This document shows, piece by piece, positions 4,232-46,181 of a stretch of 64,000 bases of DNA. The first letter of the stretch is position 1. Every line of letters begins with the position of its first letter. Where the stretch lies: NCBI RefSeq assembly GCF_900313025.1, contig NZ_OMPQ01000008.1, positions 394,482 through 458,481 of the forward strand. The letters run 5' to 3'. A program made the translations under genes and the position numbers. Below the pieces are notes generated by a model. That model ran no database searches. It was not told where the DNA came from and saw only the letters and a list, made by a program, of their open reading frames with translations. The stretch comes from Pseudophaeobacter sp. EL27. Lineage in GTDB: Bacteria > Pseudomonadota > Alphaproteobacteria > Rhodobacterales > Rhodobacteraceae.

Positions 4232-5746
4232 TCAGGTTTCGATCCGTGTCTCCACCGCATTCAGGCAAACCTCATACCCCCAGAGTGTGCCCAGATGCTT
4301 TAGCACTTCGCGCTTGTTGTCCTCTTCCAGGTGAATGCCATCGCGCACTGTATGGGAGAGGATCAGGCGCCTGTCGCCGCTCAGATCTGCATCGGTGACC
4401 TGAATGTCAGGCTCCAGATAGGCCAGATCATATTGCTGTGCCAAGGCCCGGCGGATCTCCTTATAGCCAGCCCGATTATGGATCTGGCTTACCACCATCT
4501 CCTTTTGATCCTCTTGATCCACCAAGGCAAAGAGTTTGAATTTACGCATCAGATGCGGTGACAGGAACTGCTGGATAAAGCTTTCATCCCGGTAATTGGC
4601 CCAGGCATTGCGCAGCACTGCACGCCAATCGCCCTGACCGGCGATATCCGGGAACCAATCCCGGTCCTCCTCCGTCGGCTCTTCGCAGATGCGCTTTATG
4701 TCCATCATCATAGCAAAGCCCAGCGCATAGGGGTTGATGCCGGAATATCGCGGATCGTTATACTCTGGCTGCAAAACCACATTGGTATGACTGTGCATCA
4801 TCTCCATGTAAGAGCCTTCGGTCAGACGCCCCTGGGTGAACAGCTCATTGATGATGTAATAATGCACAAAGGTGGCGCAGCCCTCGTTCATCACCTTGGT
4901 TTGTTTCTGCGGGTAGAAGTACTGCGCCAGCATCCGTACGATGCGCAGCAGCTCACGCTGCCAGGGCTTCAGGATCGGACTGTGTTTTTCCAGGAAGTAG
5001 AGAATATTCTCCTGCGGCAGGTTCAGGCTTTGCCGACGGGCCGAATAAGACTCATCATGAGGCACCCCATCCTTGGCTTTGCCCAGAGTGGCATCAGTCC
5101 AGATATCCAGTAGGCTGCGCGCGCTTTCATGGCCATCGCGCACTCGCTGCATTGCTTCCAGCTCCTGCGCGGTGGGTTTGGGCGGACGCCCATACCGAAA
5201 CACGCCTTGGGTTTGCAGGGCATGGGCCGCATCCAGAACCTCTTCGACCGCATCCAACCCATAGCGCTCCTCACAGGCGGTGATGTAGTTCTTGGCAAAG
5301 GCCAGATAGTCGTGAATGCCATCGGCATCGGTCCATTGCTGGAACAGGTAGTTGTTCTTGAAGAAATGATTATGACCAAAGGCCGCATGGGCCATCACCA
5401 ATGTCTGCATCGACATGGTGTTTTCTTCCATGTTGTAGCTGATGCAGGGGTTGGAGTTGATCACGATCTCATAGGCCAGCCCCTGCCGCCCGGTGCGATA
5501 CAGCGCCTCGTCGCGGGCAAAATGTTTACCAAAGGACCAGTGCTGATACATCAAGGGCAGCCCGGTGCAGGAATAGGCATCCAGCATCTGCTCCGCCGAA
5601 ATGATCTCGATCTGGTTCTGGTAGACATTCAGCCCCAGATCGTTCAGCGCGATATCCTCAATGGCATCGCGTGCCTTTTCCAGTAGCTCAAAACTCCACT
5701 CCGGCCCGTCAAACAGCAGGTTGGATCCTGGTTTTGCATCAAGCAT
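4232..5746 (-). CDS. SpoVR family protein (YcgB-like)
   Basis: 504 aa with a conserved SpoVR N-terminus. It overlaps the yeaH stop by 8 nt (operon). Confidence 0.85.
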   Translation of the reverse strand: MLDAKPGSNLLFDGPEWSFELLEKARDAIEDIALNDLGLNVYQNQIEIISAEQMLDAYSCTGLPLMYQHWSFGKHFARDEALYRTGRQGLAYEIVINSNPCISYNMEENTMSMQTLVMAHAAFGHNHFFKNNYLFQQWTDADGIHDYLAFAKNYITACEERYGLDAVEEVLDAAHALQTQGVFRYGRPPKPTAQELEAMQRVRDGHESARSLLDIWTDATLGKAKDGVPHDESYSARRQSLNLPQENILYFLEKHSPILKPWQRELLRIVRMLAQYFYPQKQTKVMNEGCATFVHYYIINELFTQGRLTEGSYMEMMHSHTNVVLQPEYNDPRYSGINPYALGFAMMMDIKRICEEPTEEDRDWFPDIAGQGDWRAVLRNAWANYRDESFIQQFLSPHLMRKFKLFALVDQEDQKEMVVSQIHNRAGYKEIRRALAQQYDLAYLEPDIQVTDADLSGDRRLILSHTVRDGIHLEEDNKREVLKHLGTLWGYEVCLNAVETRIET

Positions 5747-7067
5747 TTTGACCTCCCCTTATCCGTGGCAGAAAGAACTCTCTGAAGATCGGATAGATAT
5801 GGGCCGCATGCGCCACTCGCTGCATTTCAAAATGTGGGGCCTGCGCCTTGACCAGTCGGTAGTTCTGCCACAGGTCGTCGCCTGCCTCGGTGTCATTAAG
5901 AAGAGTCTCCGCGCTCTCTTCGACGATCTCCATATAGGCGTAGTACTGGCAGACCGGCAGCAGATCCTCGAGCAGCAGCTTTTTGCAGCGCGCCGAGTCA
6001 TTGCCAAAGTTCTCGCCGTCCGAAACCTGAGCCCCGTAGATGTTCCATTCCTCCGGCGGGAAACGCTCGGCAATCACCTCACGCATTTTGTCCAGCGCAG
6101 TAGAGACAATGGTACCGCCGGTTTCGCGGGCATAAAAGAAGGTCTCCTCATCCACTTCCTCTGCCAGATGGGTGTGGCGGATAAAGACCAGCTCTGTGTG
6201 CTCGTAACAGCGTGACAGGAACAGGTGCAGCAGTAAAAAGAACCGCTTGCCCAGATCCTTTTCACGTTCCTGCATCGAGCCAGAGACATCCATAAGGCAA
6301 AACACAACTGCGCGGGATTTGCGGATCTTTTCCGGCACATGGGTATCAAAGCGCAGATCAATCGGATCGATATAGCCCACCACCTTGCGCTTGCGTTGCA
6401 GCCCTTCCAGCCGCACCTGCAATTGCTCTAGCAGCTCGGCCTGGGCCGCTGTTCGACTGGGCAGCGCCTCAAGCATCTCGATTTGTGCCCGCAGATCCGC
6501 CTCTGCCTGGGCCGAGGGACGTCGCAGAGCAATGCGTCGCCCCAGAGAGTTCCGCATGGTGCGCACCAGATTGAGATTGTTGGGGGTGCCAGCCGTGGTC
6601 AGCCCAGCGCGGCGGGTGCCAATGGTTTCTGTCTCGACGGTGGGTTTCTCCACCAGATCCGGCAGCTCCAGCCCCTCAAACAGGATCTCCAGGTACTCAT
6701 CACGTGTCAGGGTAAAGGAGAAATCATCATCGCCTTCGCCACCCTCCGAGGCCTTGCGCCCGCCCTGCCCCGAACCACCATCCGGTTTGGGAATGGTATC
6801 GCCAACCACAAACTCCTTGTTACCCGGCAGGACATATTTGCGGTTGCCGCCGGGTCCATGAAAGAACCGCGGCTCCTGCAATCCCTTGGAAGGGATTGTC
6901 ACCTTTTCTCCCTCCGGTGCGACGCCATCCCCGTCCTGGATGGATTTGTCCCGCACCGAGCGGTCAACACGCTCTTTGATATTGTCCCGGGCGCGACGCA
7001 GGAACCGTTGCCGGTTGCCGTGGCTTTTGCCCTTGGGGTTGGCGCGTCTATCGATGAATTGATGCAT
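5739..7067 (-). CDS. YeaH/YhbH family protein (DUF444, vWA-like)
   Basis: 442 aa. Sequence MHQFIDRRANPKGKS...RFLRR is typical of UPF0229 YeaH. It is the middle gene of the prkA operon. Confidence 0.85.
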   Translation of the reverse strand: MHQFIDRRANPKGKSHGNRQRFLRRARDNIKERVDRSVRDKSIQDGDGVAPEGEKVTIPSKGLQEPRFFHGPGGNRKYVLPGNKEFVVGDTIPKPDGGSGQGGRKASEGGEGDDDFSFTLTRDEYLEILFEGLELPDLVEKPTVETETIGTRRAGLTTAGTPNNLNLVRTMRNSLGRRIALRRPSAQAEADLRAQIEMLEALPSRTAAQAELLEQLQVRLEGLQRKRKVVGYIDPIDLRFDTHVPEKIRKSRAVVFCLMDVSGSMQEREKDLGKRFFLLLHLFLSRCYEHTELVFIRHTHLAEEVDEETFFYARETGGTIVSTALDKMREVIAERFPPEEWNIYGAQVSDGENFGNDSARCKKLLLEDLLPVCQYYAYMEIVEESAETLLNDTEAGDDLWQNYRLVKAQAPHFEMQRVAHAAHIYPIFREFFLPRIRGGQNA

Positions 7068-7082
7068 CTTTCAGCGCCCCCG

Positions 7083-9017
7083 TTACCCGGCCTTGTTGAC
7101 CCGCATGTACCATTCCACCAGGCGCCGGACCTGACGGTCGGTATAGCCATGGCTGCGCATGCGTTCGACAAACTCCTGGTGCTTGCTCTCGGTCTTGCTG
7201 TCCTTCTTGCTGCCAAAACTGATCACCGGCAGCAGTTCTTCGACCTGTGAGAACATGTGTTTCTCAATCACGTCGCGGAGTTTCTCATAAGAGTTCCACG
7301 CTGGGTTTGATCCGGTATTGGCACGGTGGCGCAGCGCAAACTTGACCACCTCGTTGCGGAAGTCTTTGGGATTGGCGATGCCGACAGGCTTTTCAATCTT
7401 GCTCAGTTCACTGTCGAGGATCTCACGATCATAAAGCTGGCCTGTATCAGGATCTTTGTAGTCCTGCTCTTCGATCCAGGCATCCGCATAGGAGATGTAG
7501 CGATCAAAGACGTTCTGGCCATATTCGGTGTAACTCTCGAGATAGGCCTTCTGGATCTCGTTACCGATGAATTCCTCATAGCGCTGCGCCAGATCGGTTT
7601 TGATGAACTCGAGGTATTTGGCCTCGGTTTCGGCCGGGAACTGCTCGCGCTTGATCATCTGTTCCAGCACATACATCAGATGTACCGGATCGGCGGCGAT
7701 TTCATCGGTGTCGAAATTGAAGGTTGAGGAGAGCACTTTAAAGGCAAAACGGGTCGAGATGCCGTTCATACCCTCATCAACACCAGCTCGGTCCTGATAC
7801 TCCTGAACCGTCTTGGCCTTGGGGTCTGTGTCTTTCAGGCTCTCCCCATCATAGACACGCATCTTGGAATAGAGATTGGAGTTCTCATGTGGCTTCAGCC
7901 GGGTCAGAACCGAAAACCGGCTGAGGATCTTCAGGGTTTCCGGCGCGCAGGGCGCCTCGGCCAGCTCACTGTGCTGGATCAGCTTGTCATAGATCTGCGC
8001 CTCATCACTGACCCGCAGGCAATAGGGAACCTTGACGATCGAGACTCGGTCGATAAAGGCCTCATTGTTCTTGTTGTTCTTGAAGGCCTGCCACTCGCTC
8101 TCATTGGAATGCGCCAGCACCAGGCCGGTAAAGGGAATGGCCCCAAAGCTTTCGGTGCCCATATAGTTGCCTTCCTGGGTGGCGGTCAGCAGCGGGTGCA
8201 GCATCTTGATTGGCGCTTTGAACATCTCGACAAATTCCAGCACACCCTGATTGGCGCGGTTCAACCCGCCAGAGAAACTATAGGCATCCGGATTGTCCTG
8301 GCTGAAGTGTTCCAACTGACGAATGTCCACTTTGCCCACAAGGGTAGAGATATCCTGATTGTTCTCATCGCCCGGCTCGACTTTGGCGACCCCCATGCGC
8401 CGCAAACCCGACGGATAGATCCGCGCCACGGTGAACTTGCTGATGTCGCCACCATATTCGTCCAACCGCTGCACCGCCCAGGGCGACATCAGCCCCGGCA
8501 GGCGATGACGGGCAATGCCGTATTCCTCTTCGAGTACCTTGCCCATGCGTACCGGATCAAACAGGCCCAGTGGGCTCTCAAAGATCGGCGACAGCTGGTC
8601 CCCGGCTTTCAACACATAGATCGGCTGATCTTCGACCAGACATTTCAGTTGTTCCGCAAGCGAGGACTTACCGCCCCCTACTGGCCCCAGCAGATAAAGG
8701 ATTTGTTTGCGCTCTTCCAAGCCCTGGGCCGCATGGCGGAAATAGCCGACGATCCGCTCGATGGTGTCTTCCATCCCGTAGAAATCTTTGAAGGCACGAT
8801 ATTGCTTGATCGTTCGATTCTGAAAGATCGGCCCCAACCGGGCATCCTTTGAGGTATCAACCAGCTCCTCTTCCCCTATGGCTTTGAGCATCCGCTCAGC
8901 CACATTGGCATAGAGGCTCGGGTCATCGCGACAGGCATCGAGATAGTCATAGAGTGACATCTCCTGCTCACGCGTTTGGCCGTACTGCTCAACAAATATC
9001 TCGGCAATGTCTTTCAT
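7083..9017 (-). CDS. prkA: PrkA family serine protein kinase (YeaG-like)
   Basis: 644 aa. Walker A LLGPVGGGKSSL, PrkA AAA+ and C-terminal domains. AGGAGG RBS upstream. Confidence 0.9.
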   Translation of the reverse strand: MKDIAEIFVEQYGQTREQEMSLYDYLDACRDDPSLYANVAERMLKAIGEEELVDTSKDARLGPIFQNRTIKQYRAFKDFYGMEDTIERIVGYFRHAAQGLEERKQILYLLGPVGGGKSSLAEQLKCLVEDQPIYVLKAGDQLSPIFESPLGLFDPVRMGKVLEEEYGIARHRLPGLMSPWAVQRLDEYGGDISKFTVARIYPSGLRRMGVAKVEPGDENNQDISTLVGKVDIRQLEHFSQDNPDAYSFSGGLNRANQGVLEFVEMFKAPIKMLHPLLTATQEGNYMGTESFGAIPFTGLVLAHSNESEWQAFKNNKNNEAFIDRVSIVKVPYCLRVSDEAQIYDKLIQHSELAEAPCAPETLKILSRFSVLTRLKPHENSNLYSKMRVYDGESLKDTDPKAKTVQEYQDRAGVDEGMNGISTRFAFKVLSSTFNFDTDEIAADPVHLMYVLEQMIKREQFPAETEAKYLEFIKTDLAQRYEEFIGNEIQKAYLESYTEYGQNVFDRYISYADAWIEEQDYKDPDTGQLYDREILDSELSKIEKPVGIANPKDFRNEVVKFALRHRANTGSNPAWNSYEKLRDVIEKHMFSQVEELLPVISFGSKKDSKTESKHQEFVERMRSHGYTDRQVRRLVEWYMRVNKAG

Positions 9018-9540: not shown

Positions 9541-9556
9541 ATTAACACTTTGTTAA
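9541..9556. promoter_or_regulatory. CtrA box (TTAA-N7-TTAAC, perfect consensus): ttaaCACTTTGttaac
   Basis: Seen in sequence, in the divergent prkA/adhesin intergenic region ~250 bp upstream of the adhesin start. Confidence 0.4.
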
Positions 9557-9801
9557 CAAATCACCCAAAAACAAGGGGACCAGCCCCCATGCCAAAGAAA
9601 ATCTGCGGCAAACAAGACACTATAGTGCGTAATTCATCCACAGTTTCTGCCAGCACCGACTAGACATTTGATATAAATTCGACGCAATATACCCACAATA
9701 TGGCCGCAAAGAACGGCCTTCGGCAGAAACATACAGGCACCGGATCCTCCGCGACCCCATGATTTAGGGCGTTGCGTGGTCCATAAGCGAGCGGCAAAAA
9801 A

Positions 9802-12351
9802 ATGAGCACTGTTGGATTTATCACCCGTGATCTTTCGGGGACCACACGTCAAAGCACTTTTTCCGAGGGGTCTCCCTCTCTTCTCAATGTCACGCACTCC
9901 AAGGACATTTCGCTGAACCTCAGCGCCTCGGACATTGACGCCTATGTAAGGCGGGGATCGGATCTCCACCTTGTATTGGCCGATGGCCAGATCCTTGTTT
10001 TGCAGAACTACTATACCAATGGTACTGCCGGCGGCAAAAACCTGTTCCTCAGCGAGGAAGGCAATTTTGTCGAGGTCGTGTTAGAGGACAAGGCCGAGGG
10101 CGCGCTGTTTGCAAGCTACGAGCCGCTGGATATTTCCGGCAAATGGTCTGCCTATGACGAGATGGTCTTCCTAGATGTTGACCGGATCGAGCCGGTCATT
10201 GCCCCACTGGCAGCCCCTCTCTTTGGCGGCCTGGGCGCAGCGGGCGCAGCAGCCGGTGTAGCCGGTGCCGCGGTCGTCGCTGGCGGTGGTGGTGGCGGCG
10301 GTGGTGGCGGAAATGCTATCATTCCTACCGTGGACAATCCCGATGCCAGCTACCCAATTGCAGGCGCAACCACGGATCCGGTTGTTATCACCGGCACCGG
10401 TACCCCCGGCGCTGTAGTCGAAGTCAACGTAGGTGGCGAAACACAGACAGGCACCGTCAAGGATGACGGCACCTGGGAAGTGACCTTCCCGGTGGTATCC
10501 CTGCCAGCAGATGGCAACTATGACACAACCGTCAAAGTTGTCGATCCCAACGGTACAACCCATGATCTGGATGGCCCAACAGTGGTTATCGACACCACGC
10601 CACCAGTCCTGAACGTCACCAGTGGCACCCAATCCACCGGCGATATTGTCAATGGCAGTGAACATTCCTCTGGCACCGTGATCACCGGCAGCGGCGAAGC
10701 TGGCGCCAGCGTCAGTGTTGTCATCAACGGCCACACTCAGACAACAACAGTTGCCCCCAATGGCAGCTGGTCGGTTACGTTTGACTCGACCCAGATCACC
10801 ACCGGCGAATACACCACCGGGGTTGCCATCACCACAACCGACGATTTTGGCAATAGCGCCAGCTATACCGAGACATTGGTGGTCGACACCGTCGCGCCCC
10901 CCATTGGCATCAACACCGTAGAGGGCGACAATATTGTCAGCTTCTCCGAAGCCTCCAATGGTGTCACCCTCTCTGGGACCGGCGAAGCAGGGGCCTCGAT
11001 CTCTGTTCTGTTCCAAGGCGTTACCCAGACCACAACCGTTGCAAACAATGGCACCTGGTCTGTTGATTACAGCAGCGCCCAGATCACTGGTGGCAATAAC
11101 TACGCCAGCACCGTCGAGGTCACCTCGAGCGATCTGGCAGGAAACAGCTCGACCAGCACGCATACGGTCCACATTGATACTCAAACCAGCGCGACCCTGA
11201 ACGGCGGTTTTGCAGGTCCGGATGATGTATTGTCCGGCGCAGAAGCCCAGGGCGGTGTTCAGCTGACCGGCACTGCCGAGCCAGGCTCCACAGTTCAAGT
11301 GTTCTTTGGCGCCTCCGGTGCCCAGAACGCCACGGTAGATGCTGCGGGCAACTGGACAGTGCTTATTCCGCAAAGCTCGATCCCAACCGGCACCACGAAT
11401 GTCGACATTGAAGTGCACGCCACGGATGCTGTAGGCAACACCGATGTGGTGACCCGTTCCCTTGCGATCGACACCGAAGTTGACCCCTTTACCGTCGAGG
11501 CCAATCAGACCGCCAATGACGTGATCAATCAGGATGAGTTGAACGCCGGCTTTGCCCTGCAGGGCACGGTCGAGCCGGGCTCTGAGGTGATCGTGACAAT
11601 CCGGGGCGTGGCAAAGACGGCCACCGTGGATGCTGCAGGTAACTGGAGCGCCGAGTTCTCGGGCGCAGACCTTCCCGCAGGTGAATACTCTACCTCTGCC
11701 ACAATCGTTGCAAAAGATCCTGCTGGCAACACCAGCACCCTGACTGAAAACTTCGAAATCGATACCGTCTTTGAAGCCCCTGTTCTGGACTCGGTCACCT
11801 ATGAGATCGGCAGCCAGGACGTCAGCGAAATCACCGTCGAAGGCATTGCCGGCGCAGGTGAATCCATTACCGTCAACACGCTCGAAGGCGATGGTTCCAC
11901 CTCCAATCCGGGTGCAGTTGTCACTCCTGGGCGCGGCGTTACCGAGTTCGACTTTACCAATGCGATCCCCGATGGCACCGATCTGGTGGTGACCAATGTT
12001 GATACGCTTGGCAATGGGTCCAGCACCCTGCTTGTTCTTGAAGACAATGCCACAACGGCCAGCACATTGAATCATGCCTCCCTTGGCCAGTTCAACATCG
12101 ATGAACTGGATCTTGGTGCGGCCAGCAATGTGTCTCTGGTTCTGACCGAAGCGGATATCAAGGCGCTCTCCGAAAACTCGGATACCCTGACCATCCACAG
12201 TGGTTCGACCCCGGGCGACGACACTGTCACCGTGGCAGGCGCGACCTTGTCAGGAACCCGCAGTGTCGGCGGTGAGAACTACAACGTCTACACCGTTGGT
12301 AACGACGGCACGACCCTGGTCATTGATCAAGACGTCACCGTCATCATCTGA
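9802..12351 (+). CDS. Type I secretion substrate: adhesin-like protein with an N-terminal retention/BapA-prefix-like domain, an Ala/Gly-rich linker with Gly10 and ~7 bacterial Ig-like repeats
   Basis: 849 aa. N-terminus DIDAYVRRGSDLHLVLADGQILVLQNYYT. Hydrophobic AG-rich segment then GGGGGGGGGG. Repeats of the form G(T/S)GEAGASVSV..TQTTTV..NG(T/S)WSV about 95 aa apart. The TolC/ABC/HlyD genes follow immediately. Confidence 0.7.
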   Translation: MSTVGFITRDLSGTTRQSTFSEGSPSLLNVTHSKDISLNLSASDIDAYVRRGSDLHLVLADGQILVLQNYYTNGTAGGKNLFLSEEGNFVEVVLEDKAEGALFASYEPLDISGKWSAYDEMVFLDVDRIEPVIAPLAAPLFGGLGAAGAAAGVAGAAVVAGGGGGGGGGGNAIIPTVDNPDASYPIAGATTDPVVITGTGTPGAVVEVNVGGETQTGTVKDDGTWEVTFPVVSLPADGNYDTTVKVVDPNGTTHDLDGPTVVIDTTPPVLNVTSGTQSTGDIVNGSEHSSGTVITGSGEAGASVSVVINGHTQTTTVAPNGSWSVTFDSTQITTGEYTTGVAITTTDDFGNSASYTETLVVDTVAPPIGINTVEGDNIVSFSEASNGVTLSGTGEAGASISVLFQGVTQTTTVANNGTWSVDYSSAQITGGNNYASTVEVTSSDLAGNSSTSTHTVHIDTQTSATLNGGFAGPDDVLSGAEAQGGVQLTGTAEPGSTVQVFFGASGAQNATVDAAGNWTVLIPQSSIPTGTTNVDIEVHATDAVGNTDVVTRSLAIDTEVDPFTVEANQTANDVINQDELNAGFALQGTVEPGSEVIVTIRGVAKTATVDAAGNWSAEFSGADLPAGEYSTSATIVAKDPAGNTSTLTENFEIDTVFEAPVLDSVTYEIGSQDVSEITVEGIAGAGESITVNTLEGDGSTSNPGAVVTPGRGVTEFDFTNAIPDGTDLVVTNVDTLGNGSSTLLVLEDNATTASTLNHASLGQFNIDELDLGAASNVSLVLTEADIKALSENSDTLTIHSGSTPGDDTVTVAGATLSGTRSVGGENYNVYTVGNDGTTLVIDQDVTVII

Positions 12352-12357
12352 TCAATT

Positions 12358-12389
12358 GGACCGGCACAGTCCCTGACCGCTGCCGGTCC
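12358..12389 (+). promoter_or_regulatory. Intercistronic hairpin (9-bp perfect inverted repeat ggaccggca...tgccggtcc) between substrate and tolC genes
   Basis: Seen in sequence. No T-tract follows. It may act as a partial attenuator or processing site that sets the substrate-to-transporter ratio. Confidence 0.3.
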
Positions 12390-12422
12390 CAACCAAAACC
12401 CTACAAAAGGGCGAGGGGCAGT

Positions 12423-13727
12423 ATGCAACTGGCACGACCCATTGGCGCATTGGCACTTATGTGCAGCCTCTCTGGCTGCGCCGATGGCGTGCCGTTTCTT
12501 ACAGGCAAAACCACGGACGAGACCGAAGTCTCCCGGCGCGGCGGCAACTTTGTGCAGCCCGAAGGCGAGGCCACTTCCGAGGTTATCTCAACCCTGCTCG
12601 CGCGCCGCTCGCTGCTGACCGAAGGCACCGTCTACAATGACGTCGCCGAGGCCGCCGTTGCTGCCTCTGCCCGCGCCTCCGAAGCGGAACTGATCAGCGC
12701 CAAACTGCGCGCCGAAGCCGAGTCGAAAAACTGGCTGCCCACAATCGGCCCCTCCGTCAGCCTGACGGATCTGGGGGATCTGGTGGCAGGGATGCTCATT
12801 CAGCAGGTGCTTTTTGACAATGGCCGCCGCAAAGCCGAACGCGCCTTTGCAGCCGCCGATGTCGAAGTCGCCGCTGTCAATCTCTCGGTTGATATGAATG
12901 AGCGAGTTGAAGATGCCGTAGGCCTCTATCTGGCCGGGCTGCGCGGCGAAGAGAAAGCCGCCTATAACAGCCGTGCCTTGAACCAGATGCAGGAATTCCG
13001 CCGCATCGTCTCGGGGCGGGTTGACGGTGGCTTGTCCGACCGTTCCGACCTGAATGTGGTCGACAGCAAGATCAATGGCATGCGCAATGCCCGCACCACC
13101 GCACAGGATGCCGCCACCACCGCCCGGGCTGAGCTCACGGCGATGACCGGTGAGAGCTTCCCCGAAAAACCCGGCAAGCTCGACCTCGGGACACCGCCCG
13201 AAACCGTGCAGTATCTCTCGGTGTTGAAATCCGAAGCCACCGCCAATCGTGGTGTGGCCCAAGCGGTGATTGGCCGGGCCGGTCTCCTGCCGCAGATTTC
13301 AGCGGCCGGCAACGTCACTTCTGACGGATCTGGTGCCGGGCTGACCCTGGATCTGGCCGAACCGCTGGGGCTCGGCACCGGGGCCGCGCTCAAAGCCATC
13401 GAAGTCTCCAAAGAAGCTGCCCGTCGCCAGATTGGTGAGGCCGAAGAAGACGCCCGGCGCAGCCACTCCCGTCAGGAACAACGTCTGGCCTCCTATCAGC
13501 GCCAAACTGTCGAGACCGCATCACTGGCACGGGCCAGCCGGGAAACCTACAGGCTGTTCAAATCCCAGTTCGAAGCGGGCCAGCGGCCAGTGATGGATGT
13601 TGTCTCCATCTACGAAGAGCTGGTCCAGCGCGAGCAGGACCATATCGAAGCAAAGTACGAAGTTGTGTTGATCCAGCTGATGCTGGCGCGTGACATGGGC
13701 CTTTTGGCGGATGGGGATAAGATTTGA
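12423..13727 (+). CDS. TolC-family outer membrane channel of the T1SS (lipoprotein-type signal)
   Basis: 434 aa with signal/lipobox ALALMCSLSGC. Coiled-coil-rich TolC/OMF-like repeats. It overlaps the ABC gene start (ATGA). Confidence 0.8.
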   Translation: MQLARPIGALALMCSLSGCADGVPFLTGKTTDETEVSRRGGNFVQPEGEATSEVISTLLARRSLLTEGTVYNDVAEAAVAASARASEAELISAKLRAEAESKNWLPTIGPSVSLTDLGDLVAGMLIQQVLFDNGRRKAERAFAAADVEVAAVNLSVDMNERVEDAVGLYLAGLRGEEKAAYNSRALNQMQEFRRIVSGRVDGGLSDRSDLNVVDSKINGMRNARTTAQDAATTARAELTAMTGESFPEKPGKLDLGTPPETVQYLSVLKSEATANRGVAQAVIGRAGLLPQISAAGNVTSDGSGAGLTLDLAEPLGLGTGAALKAIEVSKEAARRQIGEAEEDARRSHSRQEQRLASYQRQTVETASLARASRETYRLFKSQFEAGQRPVMDVVSIYEELVQREQDHIEAKYEVVLIQLMLARDMGLLADGDKI

Positions 13728-16141
13728 CCGATACAACTTTTCCACCCCGGCCTGGTTCCACCGCCAAAGCCAGTAAGCAGTCCCGCAAACCAGGAAGCCC
13801 CCTGTTGCGGGCAGTTCCCCCCAGCCCGGCGCCGCTCGCCGACCAGGACCAGGCTCCCGTTACTGGTCAGATCATCGATGGCACCGCTTCAAACACCACT
13901 GCCCGTAGGCGCACCACCGCCCCCTCCCCGCAGGTGGCAACCCAAGCAGCCAGTGCCCCAGCCCACAGCGGTGCAGGAGCCCAAACAGATGTTGCCGCCG
14001 CGGGAGGTCGCCGCGAAGTTGGCACCCTAATTGAGGGCGCCTCTGCCCGGATCCAGCACCGCGCCACGCTGATTGCCACGCTGGCCTCCCTGAAGGGCAC
14101 CGAAGCCCATGCAGGCGATATCGCCAGCTTTATGTGGAGCAATAACCCCGGTGATTCCACAGCCGAGAGCCTGGCACAGGCATTGGGGTCGACCGGACTG
14201 CAAGTGAAACTGCAACGTCGGCCGGAGCTGACCCCCAGCGACTGGCCTGCTCTGGCGATGATGAAGGGCGGCCAATGTGTCCTGGTTCTGGGTCAGGACC
14301 AGGGTCGGCTCAGCATTTTTGACACCACCTGCCCCGACAATCGCACCGAGGTCCCGCTGGGTGAGTTCACCCCGTTTTTCACCGGCACTCTGGTGGTGGC
14401 GCGTCCCTCGCTCAAACAAATGGCAGCCCGCCATACACCGCAGCTGGAGAGCGATCACTGGTTCTGGGGCGAATTCCCCAAATACCGCCGTCAGGTGGGT
14501 GAAATCATGTTGGGCTCCTTGGTGGCCAACATCTTGGCCGTCTCGGTCGCGCTGTTCTCCCTGCAGGTCTATGACCGGGTGGTGCCGCATCAGTCTCATG
14601 CCACGCTTTGGGTTTTGGCCATTGGCGCCTTCCTTGCGATCATGCTGGAAGCCCTGCTCAAGGTGGCCCGTGCCCGGCTGACGGATGCTGCCGGACGCCA
14701 GATCGAACTTTCGGTTCAGCACAATCTGATGCGTCGCCTGATTGGCATGCGCTCGGACAAAAAACCGCTGCCCCCCTCCGGGCTGTTTGCAGCGATGCGC
14801 GATTTTGGTGCCGTACGTGAGTTCTTTACCTCTTCGACGATCTCCACCCTCGCCGATATTCCCTTTATCGCCGTCTTCCTGCTGCTGGTGGCCTCGATCG
14901 CCGGGCCTGTTGTCTATGTGATCATGGTTGGCGGTGCATTGATGCTGCTGCCGGCCTATTTCATGCAGCGCAAGATGATCGCGCTGACCCGCCAGACCCA
15001 GGGCGCCAATGCCAAGGCTGGCCGCCTGCTGCACGAGGTGATCACCGAACTCGACACAGTAAAGACCCAGCGCGGCGAAGACCGCGTTATGCGCAACTGG
15101 GACGAGTTGAATGTACTGTCCTCGCATTCCTCAACCGAACAACGTCGCCTTGCCAGCGCCCTCACCTTCTGGTCGCAGGGCATCCAGCAGGCCACCTATA
15201 TCACCGCTGTGGTTCTGGGTACTTTGCTGGTCTTTGCAGGTGAGTTCACCGTCGGGACGATTATTGCCACCGGTATCCTCACCAGTCGCACCCTGGCGCC
15301 GCTCACCCAGTTTGCCGCGACCATGGCCCGTTGGAGTAACGTCAAGGGCGCTCTGGAGGGGCTGGAGGCCATCGCCAGCGCCCCGCAGGAAATGGATGCC
15401 GAACGCAGCTACCTGCGCCGTGAGCAGCTTGAGGGCCGCTTTGAGATGCGCGAAGTGGTGTTCCGCTACGATGAAGATGCCGCCCCTACCCTGGATGTCC
15501 CCGGTGTCGCCATTACCCCAGGCCAGCGCGTTGCGGTTCTGGGCGTCAATGGCTCGGGCAAATCCACGCTGATCAAACTGCTGTCGGGTCTCTACGCCCC
15601 CGATACAGGCCGGATCATGATTGATGGCACCGATATGGGCCAGATCGACCCACGCGATCTGCGCCGCAATATCGGCTACCTGAGCCAGGATGTACGGCTG
15701 TTTGCTGGCTCTCTGCGCGACAACCTCAACCTCAACCAGCTGGAGCGCGACGACACCCGCCTGATGGCTGCTTTGGACTTTTCTGGCCTGGGCGCCTATG
15801 TGCGCGGTCACCACAAGGGCCTGGACCTGGATATCGGTGATGGCGGCGGCGGCTTGTCGATTGGTCAGCGCCAGTCGATGGGCTGGGCGCGGCTTTGGTT
15901 GCAAAACCCAACAATCGTGCTGCTGGATGAACCCACAGCCGCTTTGGACCAAACCTTGGAACGCACTCTAGTCAGCCGGTTGGAAACCTGGCTGCAGGGC
16001 CGCACCGCCGTTATCGCCACCCACCGGATGCCCATCCTGTCGCTGACCAACCGCACCCTAATCCTGCAGGACGGGCGCATGGTGGTGGATGGTCCCCGTG
16101 ATAAGGTTCTGGCGCATCTCGCCGCAGGAGAGGGCAAATGA
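13724..16141 (+). CDS. Type I secretion ABC transporter (HlyB/LapB-like permease/ATPase with an N-terminal C39-like domain and a ~100-aa Pro/Ala-rich extension)
   Basis: 805 aa. Walker A GVNGSGKST, ABC signature LSIGQRQ, Walker B ILLDEPT. The TMD precedes the NBD and a C39-like region sits N-terminally. Confidence 0.85.
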   Translation: MTDTTFPPRPGSTAKASKQSRKPGSPLLRAVPPSPAPLADQDQAPVTGQIIDGTASNTTARRRTTAPSPQVATQAASAPAHSGAGAQTDVAAAGGRREVGTLIEGASARIQHRATLIATLASLKGTEAHAGDIASFMWSNNPGDSTAESLAQALGSTGLQVKLQRRPELTPSDWPALAMMKGGQCVLVLGQDQGRLSIFDTTCPDNRTEVPLGEFTPFFTGTLVVARPSLKQMAARHTPQLESDHWFWGEFPKYRRQVGEIMLGSLVANILAVSVALFSLQVYDRVVPHQSHATLWVLAIGAFLAIMLEALLKVARARLTDAAGRQIELSVQHNLMRRLIGMRSDKKPLPPSGLFAAMRDFGAVREFFTSSTISTLADIPFIAVFLLLVASIAGPVVYVIMVGGALMLLPAYFMQRKMIALTRQTQGANAKAGRLLHEVITELDTVKTQRGEDRVMRNWDELNVLSSHSSTEQRRLASALTFWSQGIQQATYITAVVLGTLLVFAGEFTVGTIIATGILTSRTLAPLTQFAATMARWSNVKGALEGLEAIASAPQEMDAERSYLRREQLEGRFEMREVVFRYDEDAAPTLDVPGVAITPGQRVAVLGVNGSGKSTLIKLLSGLYAPDTGRIMIDGTDMGQIDPRDLRRNIGYLSQDVRLFAGSLRDNLNLNQLERDDTRLMAALDFSGLGAYVRGHHKGLDLDIGDGGGGLSIGQRQSMGWARLWLQNPTIVLLDEPTAALDQTLERTLVSRLETWLQGRTAVIATHRMPILSLTNRTLILQDGRMVVDGPRDKVLAHLAAGEGK

Positions 16142-17310
16142 CCTCATCCGCGCATTATGATCTCGCCGAGAGCGCCCGGGGCGCCAGCCGCATTGTCTAT
16201 CTGGTTGGCGCAGCTCTGTTGCTGTTCATCGGCTGGGCAGCCTTTGCTTCGGTGGATGAGATCGTGCGCGGCGAAGGCGAAGTGGTCTCCTCCTCCAGGG
16301 CGCAGATCGTACAGAACCTTGAAGGCGGCATTCTGGCGGAACTGCATGTACGCCAAGGCGACGAAGTGCGCGCCGGACAGGTTCTGGCGAAGCTCCAGGA
16401 CACCAAATTCCGCACTATTGCCGATGAGTTGCAGGACCAAATCGACACACTAGAGATCAAGCAATTCCGGCTGGAAGCCGAAATGGACGGGGCCTATGAG
16501 TTCACTGTCCCCGTTGATCTGGCAGACCGCTCCGCCGAAATACTGGCGTCAGAGCGCGCCCTGCTGAATGCCAGACAGGGCGATTTTGACAGCCGCCGCA
16601 CCAGCGCGCGCAAGATCCTGGATCAGCTGAACGATGAGCTGGCCAATATGCAAAGCCTTTACGAGCAGAACATCGTCGCCCTGATCGAAGTGAACCGCTC
16701 GCAGAAAGCTGCCACCGATGCGCAGGCCAAGTTCAATGAGATCGGCACCCAGAATGAACTGAAACTGGCAGAAGAATATTCCGAAGCCCTGCGCGAGCTG
16801 GCCTCGCTGAGGCAGGATCAGCGGCTGGCACAGGACCAGTTGGATCGCACCGTTATCACTTCGCCAATGTCCGGCATCGTCAACAGCCTGGGCGTGACCA
16901 CCATTGGCGGCGTTGTGCGCCCCGGTGAAGAGATTTTTGAGATCATCCCCATGGGGGAAGAGCTGTTTGTCGAGGCCCGCGTCAATCCCAAGGATATTGC
17001 CAGTGTACAAACCGGCCAGACGGCGACCATCAAGCTCTCGGCCTATGATTACACCATCTATGGCGCCTTGAATGGCGAGGTTGATTTTGTTTCGGCGGAC
17101 ACCTTTGAAGATGAACGCAATCCCCGCGCCGAACCCTTTTACCGCGTTACGGTTCGGGTTGATCGTTCTGATCTAACGGAGCGTCAGAAAGGCATCGAAA
17201 TTCGCCCCGGCATGCGCGCCATTGCAGAGTTGCAGACAGGATCAAAAACCGTGCTGAACTACCTGTTGAAGCCTCTGTACAAATCACAAGAGGCCTTCCG
17301 TGAACCATAA
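16138..17310 (+). CDS. HlyD-family type I secretion periplasmic adaptor (membrane fusion protein)
   Basis: 390 aa. N-terminal TM, long coiled coil, C-terminal lipoyl/beta-barrel motifs (TVITSPMSGIV, IRPGMRA). Overlaps the ABC stop. Confidence 0.85.
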   Translation: MTSSAHYDLAESARGASRIVYLVGAALLLFIGWAAFASVDEIVRGEGEVVSSSRAQIVQNLEGGILAELHVRQGDEVRAGQVLAKLQDTKFRTIADELQDQIDTLEIKQFRLEAEMDGAYEFTVPVDLADRSAEILASERALLNARQGDFDSRRTSARKILDQLNDELANMQSLYEQNIVALIEVNRSQKAATDAQAKFNEIGTQNELKLAEEYSEALRELASLRQDQRLAQDQLDRTVITSPMSGIVNSLGVTTIGGVVRPGEEIFEIIPMGEELFVEARVNPKDIASVQTGQTATIKLSAYDYTIYGALNGEVDFVSADTFEDERNPRAEPFYRVTVRVDRSDLTERQKGIEIRPGMRAIAELQTGSKTVLNYLLKPLYKSQEAFREP

Positions 17311-17510
17311 ACCCACTCACACAGGACCAGATACCACAGGGGAAGCATCGGAATGCTCCGCGCTGTTCCCCGCTGTTTGCCCTCCTCTGCCCTCTTGTTC
17401 TGGGCAGCGCCCTATCGGGCCACGTCCTGTGCGTCTGGATTCCCGGTACCCCACTGCCATTCTAGCAGTAGGTTCCGTGGGAACGTCGCTAAGGAGGGAC
17501 GTATCTGTTG

Positions 17511-18224
17511 TTAGCCGGCCTGTTGCATCAAGCGCCACAGGGTTGAATCAAGCGCTGTCCCAATCGAAACCCGCCTGCTGCCCATCGCGGCCTTGGCAGA
17601 AATCACCGAGACCAGTCGGGGCAATCGGCCCGGTATCACCTGTAGAACTGGCGCACCTGAGGCCCCAAAATCCACAAGGCAGGACATCACCAATGTCGTG
17701 CGCTGTTTTGCAAGAACCTCGCAACTGCGTTCCAAACTGGGGCGCGTCGCATGGGTAAAGTTGTAAGACAGCACCCCAACGGAATCTCCGCGATCGGCAT
17801 CCAGGGACATTCTCAAGGGCTGGATCTCGTTCGAATTGATCGGTCGAGCCAAGCGCAACACCGCAATGTCACTTCCCATCAGAGAGCCACCTCGCTGACT
17901 ATGCCGATAGCCCGGATGCACCACCGCCTTCGCAATGTTGCGTGCAGCTTTGGCACGTCGCCCCATGAGGCCCGCTTCAAATTTGATCGTCGTCGGATCA
18001 ATTGCGCGCCCAGATGCCGGATCATACAGGCAATGGGCCGCAGTCAGTACCAAGTTTGGCGCTATCAAGGATCCGGTACACATATTGCGTCCCGAGATAT
18101 TCAGACGTCCGACCGCTTCCCACCCAGGCAACGATCGAGCTCCAAATTGCGGATCACCCGCCCTCGCGCCGCTGGGCATACTTGCAAACAAGTAAGCCGC
18201 AGCCACAGCGATTAGTCGTTTCAT
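17511..18224 (-). CDS. Secreted trypsin-like (S1 family) serine peptidase
   Basis: Signal peptide MKRLIAVAAAYLFASMPSGARA. His motif LTAAHC, Asp in DIAVLRL, Ser motif variant GASGAP. Convergent with hlyD. Start taken at the 5th codon (the tool ORF reaches 18236). Confidence 0.65.
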   Translation of the reverse strand: MKRLIAVAAAYLFASMPSGARAGDPQFGARSLPGWEAVGRLNISGRNMCTGSLIAPNLVLTAAHCLYDPASGRAIDPTTIKFEAGLMGRRAKAARNIAKAVVHPGYRHSQRGGSLMGSDIAVLRLARPINSNEIQPLRMSLDADRGDSVGVLSYNFTHATRPSLERSCEVLAKQRTTLVMSCLVDFGASGAPVLQVIPGRLPRLVSVISAKAAMGSRRVSIGTALDSTLWRLMQQAG

Positions 18225-18329
18225 TTTCCACTCCAAATTCCCACATCAACATGTTTGTTCAGTCGTGCGGCTGGAATGGGGCCCAATCTTGTGCTTGGTG
18301 GACGAAATAATGGACAGAATGTGGCAGTG

Positions 18330-18345
18330 TTAACAATTCTCTAAC
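18330..18345. promoter_or_regulatory. Near-consensus CtrA box (TTAA-N7-cTAAC) ~95 bp upstream of the protease gene
   Basis: Seen in sequence: ttaaCAATTCTctaac, an 8/9 match to TTAA-N7-TTAAC. Confidence 0.25.
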
Positions 18346-19105
18346 CCCCCGGTTATTGATGCCCCAGAATGACGTTAAAACGGGGTAAATAGCCACCCGG
18401 CGTTAAGACTCTCCCTAAGGTTTTAGGCAAATACCTGTAAAAACATGCATTTTTATGTCCTACAGGACCCACATTTTACCTCCCAAGGTGCAAGACTTCG
18501 GTAAGATTTGGATTTCTAGCCCCCTAAACGGAAGCAAATGCGGCGAGAATCAGTCGTGAGTCGCATCCAAGCAGCACCCAAATCTCTTTCCAAATCCATA
18601 ATCCCGCGCCCCGGCGTTAAGATGTTGTCCTAGGGGAAAGCGAGCCTCCGTCAGCATAGGTCAGCGGCATGTTCTGGGTGATTGGTGCCGAAGCGAGGCT
18701 TTGCGTGGCCCCCTCCTCACTTCAGAGCCTCACCCCAGGCAGAGCCCCAGGGAGGCTAAATAGTAAAACGGCTGCCCACTGCTTTACCTCTCCTAGGAAA
18801 CCCTTAACTCGGAAGGAGCAAGACCTGCCCGGTCAGGCAAGGCCAGTCTCACCCCAAAATAAGGTGGGTGTCGGTTGTGCAGGCTGTTCGCAGGTCATGC
18901 CCATGAGGACAGTGCTGTGGGCTCTTTTGCAGCCGCAGCACCCAGGTTTTACCCAGAATGCACAGCCACAAGCAAAAGCCTCCCTAGGATAACCTGCAGC
19001 TCGCGGGACAAAGGCAATCCCAGTCATGTAGAGACGAGAAGGTCCACACCATTGGTCGGCAAACCGGTGGGACAGGCCAAGCCCTGCCCCTGAGCCAAGG
19101 TGCAG

Positions 19106-19741
19106 TTAGTCCTGCGGCCCCATCGGGAACCGCGACCGACGCACTCGCGTTTTGAAATCCTTGCGCCCGTAGCGGGCGGTCATGTCGGCCTCATAGACCG
19201 CGATGAGCCGTCGGCCAACGGCACCACGGAAAGGCTCTTTGACAACCTGACGGTAGTTGGGTTTGCGCCCCATCCAGCGCAAAAGCTTTCGATTGCCGAT
19301 GGGATCGTGAATATGGTCATCAGCCGCGGTTGCGGGCCATTCATAGGGTACGGTCACGATGACCATATCGCTGATCTCAAGCAGCTTACGTGCAAAAGGC
19401 ACCACATCTGGAACATGTTCCAGCACCTGCAAGCAGGTGGCGACATCATATTTCTTGCCGCCAAAGTCATGCGTCAGGAAATCCCCTTGAATCCCCTCAA
19501 CCGTCGAGGAGCGATAAGGCTCTGCCATGTCAAAGGAGACACGTTCGGGGATCCAATCGAACCACTCAAGATAGGGGCAGCTCGCGGTTCCGATGTCGAT
19601 CATGGATTTGGCGTTCTTGCCCAGACTGCGCACGATATAGTCCAGGTAAGAGTAGTACATGAGATCCATGCGGTTTTGCCAATACTGCCCGGATTTGTAC
19701 CCAAGCAGGATATTTGGATCCACCTCATCAATACTCTTCAT
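19106..19741 (-). CDS. Class I SAM-dependent methyltransferase (Methyltransf_11/23-like)
   Basis: 211 aa. SAM motif I-like IDIGTASCPY and post-I acidic/LEHVPD motif. Codon usage is AT-richer than the neighbours. Confidence 0.55.
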   Translation of the reverse strand: MKSIDEVDPNILLGYKSGQYWQNRMDLMYYSYLDYIVRSLGKNAKSMIDIGTASCPYLEWFDWIPERVSFDMAEPYRSSTVEGIQGDFLTHDFGGKKYDVATCLQVLEHVPDVVPFARKLLEISDMVIVTVPYEWPATAADDHIHDPIGNRKLLRWMGRKPNYRQVVKEPFRGAVGRRLIAVYEADMTARYGRKDFKTRVRRSRFPMGPQD

Positions 19742-19909
19742 CCTAACAACACCCCTAACCTCAAAATCCTTATGGCCTAGACCTCCTCCTCACATGAAAC
19801 ATAGCGGGAAGTTTGGCTCAAATTTGTCCTGCTAAGAAGCCACAAAACGCCCCCGGGGTAAATCACCAAACAACCTTCTGGAGAGGTAAAATGAACGCCC
19901 GCGACGCGA

Positions 19910-20518
19910 TCAGACAGCCGATCTTAGCCGCCTGTGTTGCAGGTTGGAATTGACCCGATATAGCTCCAGGGCGATGAGCGGTACAAAATGCACTAAGGCC
20001 GGGCCTACCCCTCCCCAATTGTGAAGGGCTGCCCAGTGAACAAGGGTCAAGACAGCAGCGCCGTAGACACCGCGTTGCAACATCTTCCAATGCGGCCCAA
20101 GTTTGCGCAGCCAGCCATCCGTTGAGGTCACCGCAAGGGGCACAAAGATCAGCAAGGCCAGCCAGCCCGTCCAGATATAGAGTTTGGACAACTCATTGCC
20201 GGAATAGGCCACCACCCCTATGTCGATCAGATAGAGCACCGTATGCGCCGCTGCATAGCCAAAGGCTGCAACCCCCAGATACCGGCGCCGCTTCATCAGC
20301 CAACGTGGCCCCCGCCAGCCTCTGAAAAGCATCGTCAACGGGGTAATCATCATCGAAATGATCATGAAACGTGCTGCAAACTCACCTGTGGGGTGCAGCA
20401 GCATATGGATCGTTTTGGCATCTCCCGTGGCCAGCGCAGCTGTCATCGGGATTGCGGGCAGGCATAAGAGCGCCCAAAACGTATAAGGGTGATTTAGAAA
20501 GGATCGGACTGCGGACAT
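19910..20518 (-). CDS. Ferric reductase-like transmembrane domain protein (MsrQ/YedZ-like heme-binding membrane subunit)
   Basis: ~200 aa from the internal ATG (MSAVRSF) with a GGAGCC RBS. About 6 TM helices with conserved His in TM (AAAHTVLY, LVHWAALH). Confidence 0.5.
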   Translation of the reverse strand: MSAVRSFLNHPYTFWALLCLPAIPMTAALATGDAKTIHMLLHPTGEFAARFMIISMMITPLTMLFRGWRGPRWLMKRRRYLGVAAFGYAAAHTVLYLIDIGVVAYSGNELSKLYIWTGWLALLIFVPLAVTSTDGWLRKLGPHWKMLQRGVYGAAVLTLVHWAALHNWGGVGPALVHFVPLIALELYRVNSNLQHRRLRSAV

Positions 20519-20660
20519 ACTCAAGGCTCCAGAACTCGTGAAGCCTATACGGTTCAGCCCAACTTTTCCGTCGCTCTTTTCGATAGTAGTGGTGGAAAAC
20601 CCTGCCACCCCCGGTGTCGGCGCGCCAGTTGGTCAGCCCCGCCCTAGTTTGGCCAAGTCC

Positions 20661-32953: not shown

Positions 32954-33026
32954 GAACGGCTTTTTCAAATGACGGGAGTCGAACCCGCTCCATTTCGATT
33001 AACAGTCGAATGCTCTTCCAGATGAG
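32954..33026 (-). tRNA. tRNA-Asn(GUU)-like gene (canonical D, anticodon and T arms; C1·A72 mismatch by manual fold; no encoded CCA)
   Basis: Minus-strand read: CCAAATG-TA-GCTC-ATCTGGAA-GAGC-A-TTCGA-CTGTTAA-TCGAA-ATGGA-GCGGG-TTCGACT-CCCGT-CATTTGA-A. Confidence 0.5.
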
Positions 33027-33096
33027 CTACATTTGGTGCTTAGGGAGGGATCGAACCTCCGCCTACAGAACCTGAATCTGTCGCTCTCCCACTGAG
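33024..33096 (-). tRNA. tRNA-like gene with class-I cloverleaf and anticodon CAG; the 3' acceptor strand does not pair with the 5' strand, so possibly a pseudogene or disrupted
   Basis: GCTGAAG-TA-GCTC-AGTGGGA-GAGC-G-ACAGA-TTCAGGT-TCTGT-AGGC-GGAGG-TTCGATC-CCTCC-CTAAGCA-CCA. The D, anticodon and T arms are canonical. Its CCA end abuts the 5' end of the Asn tRNA. Confidence 0.35.
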
Positions 33097-33425
33097 CTAC
33101 TTCAGCCAACCAATCCGGAATTCCGCGGCCCTGGCATACGGGATCGGCAGCGCCGTCCGCACCGGGAGAGTGATCACCTCTGCCCGCTAGGGTCCGGTTC
33201 AACCTGACCGGTGAAGCGCTGTTTAGGCGGGAAGCATGATTTCACTCAATAAGTTATTTTGGCACCCAGCACACCCTTGGCGTGTGCGCAGCAAAATTAC
33301 CCAGTCACGCAATATCTGCAAACATCCCGCGACAATAGCAAAACGGCGCCCCTGATTTGGGACGCCGTGTTTTGCAGATGTTTCAAAAACCGACTGGCCG
33401 GTTTGGCCTGTTCAGCACCAAGGGC

Positions 33426-46065: not shown

Positions 46066-46181
46066 GAAAAATGCTCCATTGGGTTAACCTCGTCACGTCA
46101 GGAAGCCGTTGTGAGAGGAGATAGTACCAAGTACGCGGGGTTGATCGAGAGGTCAAACACTAATCGGCAAACGTTAATTCG

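Follow-up and report, generated by a model that had tools for sequence, protein, structure and literature searches.

We analysed a window of 64,000 nt (64 kb) from Pseudophaeobacter sp. EL27 (contig NZ_OMPQ01000008.1, positions 394,482 to 458,481) and found that it carries, at positions 9802-17310, an adhesin cassette with a dedicated type I secretion system (T1SS), next to the convergent gene of an S1 serine protease. There is little doubt that the cassette is a chromosomal BapA-type T1SS adhesin system of the Phaeobacter/Pseudophaeobacter-Leisingera-Tritonibacter-Shimia group, within the Roseobacteraceae, in which an adhesin devoid of a Sec signal is exported C-terminus first by its own machinery (TolC-like protein, LssB-type ATP-binding cassette (ABC) transporter and HlyD). 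It is quite possible, if somewhat short of an even chance, that the neighbouring protease processes or releases the adhesin. A fuller proposal is that in this marine roseobacter clade the pair LapG/LapD has been replaced by an S1 protease cutting at the plug/linker junction of the adhesin. Production would be timed by the CtrA phosphorelay, possibly with a leader sequestering the ribosome-binding site (RBS), and not by cyclic di-GMP (c-di-GMP) sequestration, the adhesin being shed at the motile switch. Taken as a whole, we consider this proposal speculative and rather unlikely.

All five open reading frames (ORFs) listed in a first-pass annotation of this DNA were found. The adhesin gene (9802..12351, plus strand; 849 aa, with BapA_N domain and Ig-like repeats) is followed on the same strand by the genes for a TolC-like outer-membrane factor, analogue of LapE/BapD (12423..13727), for an LssB/LapB-type T1SS ABC transporter (13724..16141) and for a HlyD-family membrane-fusion protein (16138..17310). 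The four genes, previously described as co-oriented and overlapping, are indeed co-oriented, but overlaps, of 4 nt each, exist only between the TolC-like and ABC genes and between the ABC and HlyD genes, the adhesin gene lying 71 nt from the TolC-like one. That the secretion system is complete was borne out by the profile matches beside the adhesin. The TolC-like protein, with a lipoprotein-like N-terminus, matched Pfam OEP (79 bits) and partially TIGR01844; the HlyD protein matched TIGR01843 (334 bits) and Pfam HlyD_3; and the transporter matched TIGR03375 (LssB) with 681.7 bits (cut-off 693.1) over residues 116-801, from model position 6. The C39-like domain attributed to the transporter is less clear: Pfam C39 gave no match on its N-terminus even at E<=10, and what speaks, weakly, in its favour is the match to the full-length model of LssB and an alignment with HlyB (7sgr) that is partial, beginning at HlyB residue 66. 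The transporter, which starts with TTG, also carries a Pro/Ala/Ser/Thr-rich N-terminal extension of ~115 residues (13724-14068, plus strand) before the LssB-homologous part; the length of this extension varies among orthologs, which total 744-949 aa.

Relatives were compared in a synteny set composed of 80 loci around protease homologs (one genome per species), 26 metagenomic loci found by the adhesin N-terminus and seven contexts annotated with Pfam; single loci are indicated below by L numbers. The LapA/BapA-like architecture proposed for the adhesin held up, with a BapA_N prefix, a conserved hydrophobic Ala/Gly segment followed by poly-Gly, Ig-like repeats and the dedicated LssB-type T1SS. 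The protein contains no Cys and no N-terminal Sec signal. BapA_N (PF22783) matched residues 28-96 with 30.9 bits (cut-off 27), and matched strongly in the adhesin orthologs of L089, L117 and L118. Among the profiles that the first-pass annotation had suggested as checks, NF033677 reached 35.2 bits (cut-off 35), and TIGR03661 (T1SS C-terminal signal) gave no match in the adhesin. The expected Ig-like domains were present as five Ca-stabilised tandem repeats (NF033510 Ca_tandemer, 235 bits), and as Big_6 (104 bits) and Big_13 (101 bits); after them comes an acidic/hydrophobic C-terminus. A search for repeats-in-toxin (RTX) nonapeptides found zero GG.G.D matches in all 849 residues.

The N-terminal module (residues 1-127; 9802..10182, plus strand) resembles the BapA_N prefix, is a beta-sandwich and may act in the periplasm as a plug or retention domain; together with the segment that follows it, it is the most conserved part of the adhesin among orthologs. 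In the AlphaFold2 (AF2) model, residues 1-88 form an all-beta sandwich (predicted local distance difference test, pLDDT, ~80) and the remainder, including the linker, is disordered. The similarity of this module to those of LapA/BapA was claimed from the start: the thresholds of PF22783 and NF033677 were reached, and structural analogy was neither shown nor refuted, as sequence and fold searches of the PDB with the module, of which only residues 1-88 are confidently modelled, returned no significant match. The linker (residues 128-170; 10183..10311, plus strand) reads RIEPVIAPLAAPLFGGLGAAGAAAGVAGAAVVA followed by ten Gly, and may both span the channel and include the cleavage region. Across orthologs it is 43-75 residues long and maintains a fixed order: R[IV]EPVxAPL, a hydrophobic Ala/Gly stretch with AAAG (Kyte-Doolittle maximum 1.64), then poly-Gly or Gly/Asp. 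Nine diverse sequences all have R128, E130, P131, V132, A134, P135 and L136. In an extended conformation the linker would measure at least ~140 Å, a length that would suffice to span a TolC-type channel. In our judgement, the retention of the adhesin on the surface by its N-terminal plug has slightly better than an even chance of being correct.

The search of an index of 5.8 billion proteins with the adhesin N-terminus retrieved 10 matches only, all of them short or frameshifted fragments of no value for gene context. The poly-Gly run (10282-10311, plus strand) is encoded by a simple G-rich repeat, and the database orthologs P0122, P0125 and P0127 end just past it with frameshifted Arg/Trp-rich tails. 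This suggests errors of assembly or gene calling at the repeat, or possibly genuine slippage.

The protease gene lies on the minus strand, convergent with hlyD and separated from it by a 200-nt gap, as originally annotated. The listed ORF spans 17511-18236; the true start is the ATG at 18224, which gives a Sec-exported (predicted) protein of 237 aa (17511..18224), the sole version on record in the source genome. The assignment to the S1 family, with an H/D/S triad and a GASGAP motif, is well founded: Pfam Trypsin (PF00089) matched with 55 bits, and 16 homologs all keep H64, D119, S189 (within GASGAP) and four Cys. The AF2 model (pLDDT 79) has a generic chymotrypsin fold, and its nearest structures are exfoliative toxin A, the Umb1 protease and glutamyl endopeptidase (E ~1e-11); the best sequence match, 7uxg, is an uncharacterised "Serine protease". 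The protein is 97% identical to that of Phaeobacter sp. 11ANDIMAR09 and 88% to those of Pseudophaeobacter spp. The N-terminal hydrophobic signal ends with ARA|G, and the conserved Cys form two disulfide pairs. The Sec signal and the disulfide pairs would fit a location in the oxidising periplasm.

Then, the association between the protease and the T1SS was evaluated across the synteny set. At 31 of the 40 loci with an orthologous T1SS, protease and hlyD converge at a distance of at most 250 bp. Three further loci, of Shimia type, have 2-4 kb of genes inserted between the two, two are truncated, and four show no protease within ~2 kb (L110, of Shimia type, and L109, L112 and L114). When the HlyD protein is at least 68% identical, the protease is present at every assessable locus, which agrees with the synteny anticipated for Rhodobacteraceae relatives; three loci with 62-63% identity are without it. 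The block formed by PrkA, by the adhesin, outer-membrane protein (OMP), ABC and HlyD genes and by the protease spans at least 10 genera, from Shimia to Phaeobacter; the genera and groups carrying it include Phaeobacter, Pseudophaeobacter, Leisingera, Cribrihabitans, Epibacterium-like metagenome-assembled genomes, Tritonibacter, Parasedimentitalea, NS-SX3 and Shimia. From genus to genus the genes on the outer side of the protease are almost always different (e.g., MFS/MerR, a hybrid histidine kinase, a cyclase-TPR protein, a sugar ABC transporter or an IUNH/methyltransferase pair). The Shimia-type insertions comprise an MFS transporter at some loci and a lipoprotein, LysE and CBS-GGDEF set at another. 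In the latter (L016, Shimia sp. MIT1388), a CBS-domain diguanylate cyclase with a GGEEF motif (L016:12062-13072, minus strand) is inserted between protease and T1SS with a LysE-family protein and a small lipoprotein; it is the only c-di-GMP gene near any cassette examined.

Both genes are preceded by motifs resembling the binding site of CtrA. A full site, TTAACACTTTGTTAAC (TTAA-N7-TTAAC), lies at 9542..9557, 260 nt upstream of the adhesin start codon, and it is the only perfect TTAA-N7-TTAA box in the window. In roseobacters the CtrA site is taken to be TTAA-N7-TTAAC (PMC3692519, PMC4046655), and CtrA controls motility and c-di-GMP turnover there (PMC3692519, PMC4046655, PMC12363192). The conserved 5' region of the protease (18225..18345, minus strand) includes a second box, GTTAGAGAATTGTTAA on the minus strand (18330-18345), with one mismatch and at -120 from the ATG, together with the block CATTCCAGCC. 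Among the listed loci, a box with at most one mismatch occurs at -120 +/-2 from the protease in 18, often with a second one at -193 to -220, and a box upstream of the adhesin, at -248 to -283, in 12, representing ~10 distinct lineages; L006 has a full box at -367. The background in 1.6 Mb was 0.007 per kb for perfect boxes and 0.07 per kb for boxes with at most one mismatch. Upstream boxes were found for 12/16 proteases of the T1SS-linked clade versus 6/83 glc-linked paralogs. The presence of a CtrA site does not prove regulation (PMC3692519), and control of adhesin and protease by CtrA, as these boxes would suggest, is a tentative idea that falls short of probable. The box at 9542 stands in the intergenic region between prkA and the adhesin gene and could in principle serve either of them.

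Conservation across genera in the ~130 nt before the protease ATG (alignment A3, L001-L014 plus L083) goes far beyond that expected of a plain promoter. Within them, CATTCCAGCC can pair with the protease RBS, TGGAGTGG, in a predicted hairpin. All pairs of this hairpin are invariant, with no covariation, and its minimum free energy has a z of -0.4 against shuffled sequences; with no covariation and an energy no better than that of shuffles, the RBS-sequestering leader was set aside as evidence. Besides the CtrA-type box, the 8-10-mers common to the upstream regions of adhesin and protease gave no significant signal.

An experimental anchor comes from Phaeobacter inhibens, whose genome (L090 = CP031948.1) carries the identical block. 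Its adhesin has a BapA_N domain and 1225 aa, and its coordinates equal those of PGA1_c02460 of strain DSM 17395; from its position relative to this gene, the protease is PGA1_c02420. PGA1_c02460, a "hypothetical protein" of 123 kDa, was reported in all 30 exoproteome samples, with Mascot scores of 170-890, the OMP PGA1_c02450 is sporadic in the exoproteomes, and there is no row for c02420-c02440 (PMC12363192). The adhesin ortholog is therefore exported and abundant in the medium, where it ranks with the dominant proteins, and the protease ortholog is not detected there. The pattern fits release after retention and plain secretion alike. As for the protease, which the first-pass annotation called secreted, the Sec signal peptide agrees with export, and since no exoproteome contained the P. 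inhibens ortholog, a periplasmic location is more likely than an extracellular one.

Combining these data, a mechanism can be outlined. The BapA_N beta-sandwich (~127 residues) would fold before entering the channel and act as a periplasmic plug, and the RIEPVxAPL motif with the 43-75-residue Ala/Gly and poly-Gly linker would thread the outer-membrane channel, thereby displaying the Ca-stabilised Ig repeats on the surface. The periplasmic S1 protease could then cut at a point after the plug and before the channel-spanning segment, or process the N-terminal region in some other way, so that the adhesin would slip into the medium and the protease would be a functional analogue of LapG. With no linked LapD-like receptor, control may be transcriptional or translational, and through the CtrA-type boxes release would be coupled to the motile phase of the "swim-or-stick" switch.

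Several points weigh against this mechanism. A rival explanation is that this is an ordinary BapA-type system beside whose hlyD gene the S1 protease, one of several general periplasmic paralogs, landed once and was kept by descent, the adhesin being plainly secreted into the medium or matrix or shed by non-dedicated means. We regard this explanation as a serious contender, even if it does not reach the level of the probable. The neighbour-joining tree unites the T1SS-linked proteases in one clade, which derives from within a widespread, glcF-linked Rhodobacteraceae paralog family with 2-5 paralogs per genome in unrelated contexts. In most Rhodobacteraceae (L019-L081, e.g., L020:5753-11286) these paralogs occur as singles, tandem pairs or triples in a glcD-glcE-glcF-protease(s)-hsp20 string, after which genes for a vWA protein and an extracytoplasmic function (ECF) sigma factor frequently come. 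In P. inhibens and relatives a paralog subclade derived from the T1SS-linked lineage lies between an RND pump and serine hydroxymethyltransferase. The linkage between T1SS and protease goes back to one ancestral duplication and relocation, vertically inherited. The protease and hlyD are convergent and not co-transcribed. Furthermore, 3-4 events hit the inner junction of 20-250 bp (the Shimia insertions, L110 and L013) versus at least nine in the outer region of 300-900 bp, roughly the neutral expectation for random breakpoints, and the adjacency of PrkA is equally conserved with no obvious functional tie. 

The distant lineage formed by L109, L112 and L114 also belongs among these points: it shares the N-terminal module, the linker (...LERIEPVVAPLAFAGLGLGGAGAAAAAAAGV...GGNGGG) and the T1SS, with its cassette between a Cu-ATPase and a Nudix-like gene, and has no adjacent protease; therefore, the adhesin architecture does not require one. 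The Shimia-type loci are without CtrA-type boxes. The N-terminal model matches no solved retention module in the PDB. The exfoliative toxins and glutamyl endopeptidases, structurally nearest to the protease, prefer an acidic P1 residue, and the adhesin linker is Ala/Gly-rich. Moreover, PGA1_c02460 is still found in the exoproteome of a P. inhibens ctrA transposon mutant (PMC12363192), and the adhesin is abundant in the supernatants of exponential cultures of every strain tested, as would be the case with plain secretion.

On the other side, the idea of a protease that is there by accident has to face the conservation of a gap of at most 250 bp in 31 listed loci and at least 10 genera, despite at least nine rearrangements of the outer flank, and the persistence of the protease within 2-4 kb even after the Shimia insertions. 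Rare CtrA-type boxes are present at both genes, and free secretion would not readily account for a strongly conserved plug and linker. A further point for the link is L013, which holds the only protease of the clade without a T1SS: frameshift-split IS630-like transposase ORFs (11119-12115) occupy the junction, exactly at the T1SS position. The adhesin-release circuit based on a serine protease, as conceived in the first-pass annotation, keeps the conserved synteny, the single clade, the boxes and the abundance of the P. inhibens ortholog in supernatants in its favour, and has against it the single-origin linkage, the paralogs elsewhere, the protease-free lineage and the AAAG motif of the linker. 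Of the mechanisms considered, processing or release by this protease is the most attractive.

The AAAG motif deserves attention, as it is LapG-like and LapG/LapD could lie elsewhere in the genome. In this case a LapG-type BTLCP protease, with a LapD- or DvhD-like receptor, would cut AAAG, and the S1 protease would be irrelevant or auxiliary; we give such classical control a small chance. LapG substrates need a targeting helix and a DP motif, followed by [T/A/P]AAG (PMC13090378). AAAG fits the last of these and occurs 21-24 residues after RIEPV in 10/12 orthologs, Lap systems often encode second adhesins away from lapGD, and the three dual GGDEF-EAL proteins of P. inhibens could include a LapD-like receptor. 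However, AAAG is expected by chance in an Ala/Gly-rich composition and is missing in L008 and L018. Of the LapG-like cleavage region claimed for the linker, the di-alanine motif stood, whereas neither the DP motif nor a predicted targeting helix was found in the adhesin N-terminus and linker, which have the fixed motif R[IV]EPVxAPL instead. The absence of LapG and LapD, asserted in the first-pass annotation, was confirmed at the scale of neighbourhoods, not of the genome: the 64-kb window contains no LapG (BTLCP, PF06035), LapD_MoxY_N, GGDEF, EAL or HD-GYP, and the Pfam-annotated +/-10 kb of seven relatives contain no LapG/LapD-type genes, BTLCP, LapD_MoxY_N, GGDEF and EAL included. In the literature we found no paper linking LapG/LapD to roseobacters, and the papers on the BapA of Paracoccus denitrificans are silent on both.

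A further alternative, also improbable in our view, keeps the link between protease and cassette without any switch: the protease could serve T1SS quality control, clearing stalled or misfolded N-termini, or the maturation of another envelope substrate of the CtrA phase. The evidence of synteny and boxes is the same as for the release mechanism, and no linked receptor or regulator of protease activity was found. In P. inhibens, the relocated protease paralog (L085/L086:9879-9893) keeps a perfect box, TTAACTGATTGTTAA, at -122. The box therefore belongs to the protease lineage and not to the T1SS junction, which counts against adhesin release; apparently the duplicate moved together with its own promoter, suggesting a broader envelope role. 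Quality control or maturation has no specific support of its own and shares the weaknesses of the synteny argument.

Comparison with known systems places the release mechanism in context. By membership, the nearest studied case in the Rhodobacterales is BapA/BapBCD of P. denitrificans, and by function the closest are Lap and Dvh. What the cassette has in common with BapA/BapBCD (PMC5588039) and with Salmonella enterica BapA is a T1SS adhesin that has a BapA prefix and Ig-like repeats and is encoded alongside a three-gene T1SS. The P. denitrificans BapA, described as an RTX-family agglutinin, supports Ca-dependent biofilm with no LapG/LapD described (PMC5588039), and no protease partner has been described for it.

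With the Lap system (LapA/LapBCE/LapG/LapD of Pseudomonas fluorescens, and also FrhA/CraA of Vibrio cholerae, BrtA of Bordetella and RtxA of Legionella), the cassette shares a dedicated T1SS with an LssB/LapB-type ABC transporter, the giant-adhesin logic, a predicted N-terminal folded module followed by a Gly/Ala-rich, putatively channel-spanning segment predicted to be unstructured, with an Ala-rich candidate site (AAAG), the gene of a probably periplasmic protease nearby and the presence of the adhesin in supernatants. Unlike Lap, where the protease is a Ca-dependent BTLCP cysteine protease, here it is an S1 serine protease, convergent with the T1SS and not in a lapGD pair; no LapD or c-di-GMP gene is present in 64 kb, and the substrate is small (849 aa), without RTX nonapeptides, DP motif or targeting helix. 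The FhaB/SphB1 pair of Bordetella provides a precedent for a dedicated serine protease that matures or releases a large secreted adhesin; it differs in using two-partner (type Vb) secretion and in that SphB1 is a surface subtilisin-type autotransporter, not a periplasmic S1 enzyme. MpIBP of Marinomonas primoryensis (1.5 MDa) sits in a LapG/LapD-containing background. Its membrane-anchoring region I, as cited in PMC13090378, embodies the same concept of an N-terminal beta-rich plug and linker in the outer-membrane channel; no sequence or structural similarity to it was detected in the PDB searches. In both LapG and DvhG systems, periplasmic proteolysis of the retention module releases the adhesin (PMC13090378). 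DvhA/DvhG/DvhD of Desulfovibrio vulgaris follow the Lap logic with divergent parts outside the Gammaproteobacteria and with regulators beside the T1SS (PMC13090378), which is comparable to the present arrangement, but DvhG is a BTLCP cutting [T/A/P]AAG and DvhD a HD-GYP c-di-GMP receptor, and neither type was found here.

In the literature we found no S1 protease described as the partner of a T1SS adhesin. BapA-type T1SS adhesins are widespread (e.g., in Salmonella and Paracoccus) and, unlike the LapA-type, have no known release mechanism. If the release mechanism is correct, a serine-protease partner would supply it. This would be a second, mechanistically independent invention of periplasmic proteolytic release for T1SS adhesins, and such release would have arisen at least twice, from enzymes that are unrelated. 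For roseobacters, which dominate as surface colonisers and live in symbiosis with algae, the "swim-or-stick" switch is ecologically important, and a release timed by CtrA would link a known motility regulator to detachment. If the protease is instead a bystander, what is left is one more member of the BapA family, new and well annotated. The presence of the identical cassette in the model strain P. inhibens DSM 17395 (PGA1_c02420-c02460, tags not mentioned in the main texts of the literature) makes the hypothesis directly testable; its adhesin is among the most abundant exoproteins in the published data, and transposon mutants exist for PGA1_c02440, c02460 and c02470.

On the other side of the adhesin gene, across a 784-bp intergenic region, lies the divergent prkA-yeaH(DUF444)-spoVR operon (4232-9017, minus strand), of which prkA (7083..9017, minus strand; Pfam AAA_PrkA/PrkA) is the first gene. 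In most ortholog loci the adhesin has PrkA as its neighbour, a conserved context that need not belong to the adhesin system. Plasmids and chromids yielded no relevant matches to the locus DNA, to the protease or to the N-terminal module, and the module is therefore considered chromosomal. A scan for sigma-70 promoters and terminators gave nothing informative.

Beyond the protease, the comparison of 18225-20608 with L002 (Phaeobacter sp. 11ANDIMAR09) revealed a strain-specific indel at the block boundary. An 880-bp gene-free stretch, a methyltransferase-like ORF (211 aa; 19106-19741, minus strand) and a Ferric_reduct gene (19910-20518, minus strand) have no counterpart in L002, where an IU_nuc_hydro gene comes almost directly after the protease. 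An apparent repeat (CCGGCGTTAAGA...) in 18225-19105 was not confirmed by a repeat search and was discarded. The other genes of the window are housekeeping. Among its remaining features, two tandem tRNA genes stand side by side at 32964-33106 (minus strand; Rfam tRNA, 62 and 53 bits), and a S-adenosylmethionine/S-adenosylhomocysteine (SAM/SAH) riboswitch aptamer (RF01727, 53.7 bits; 46072-46120, minus strand) is located directly upstream of the S-adenosylmethionine synthetase gene (44884-46065, minus strand).

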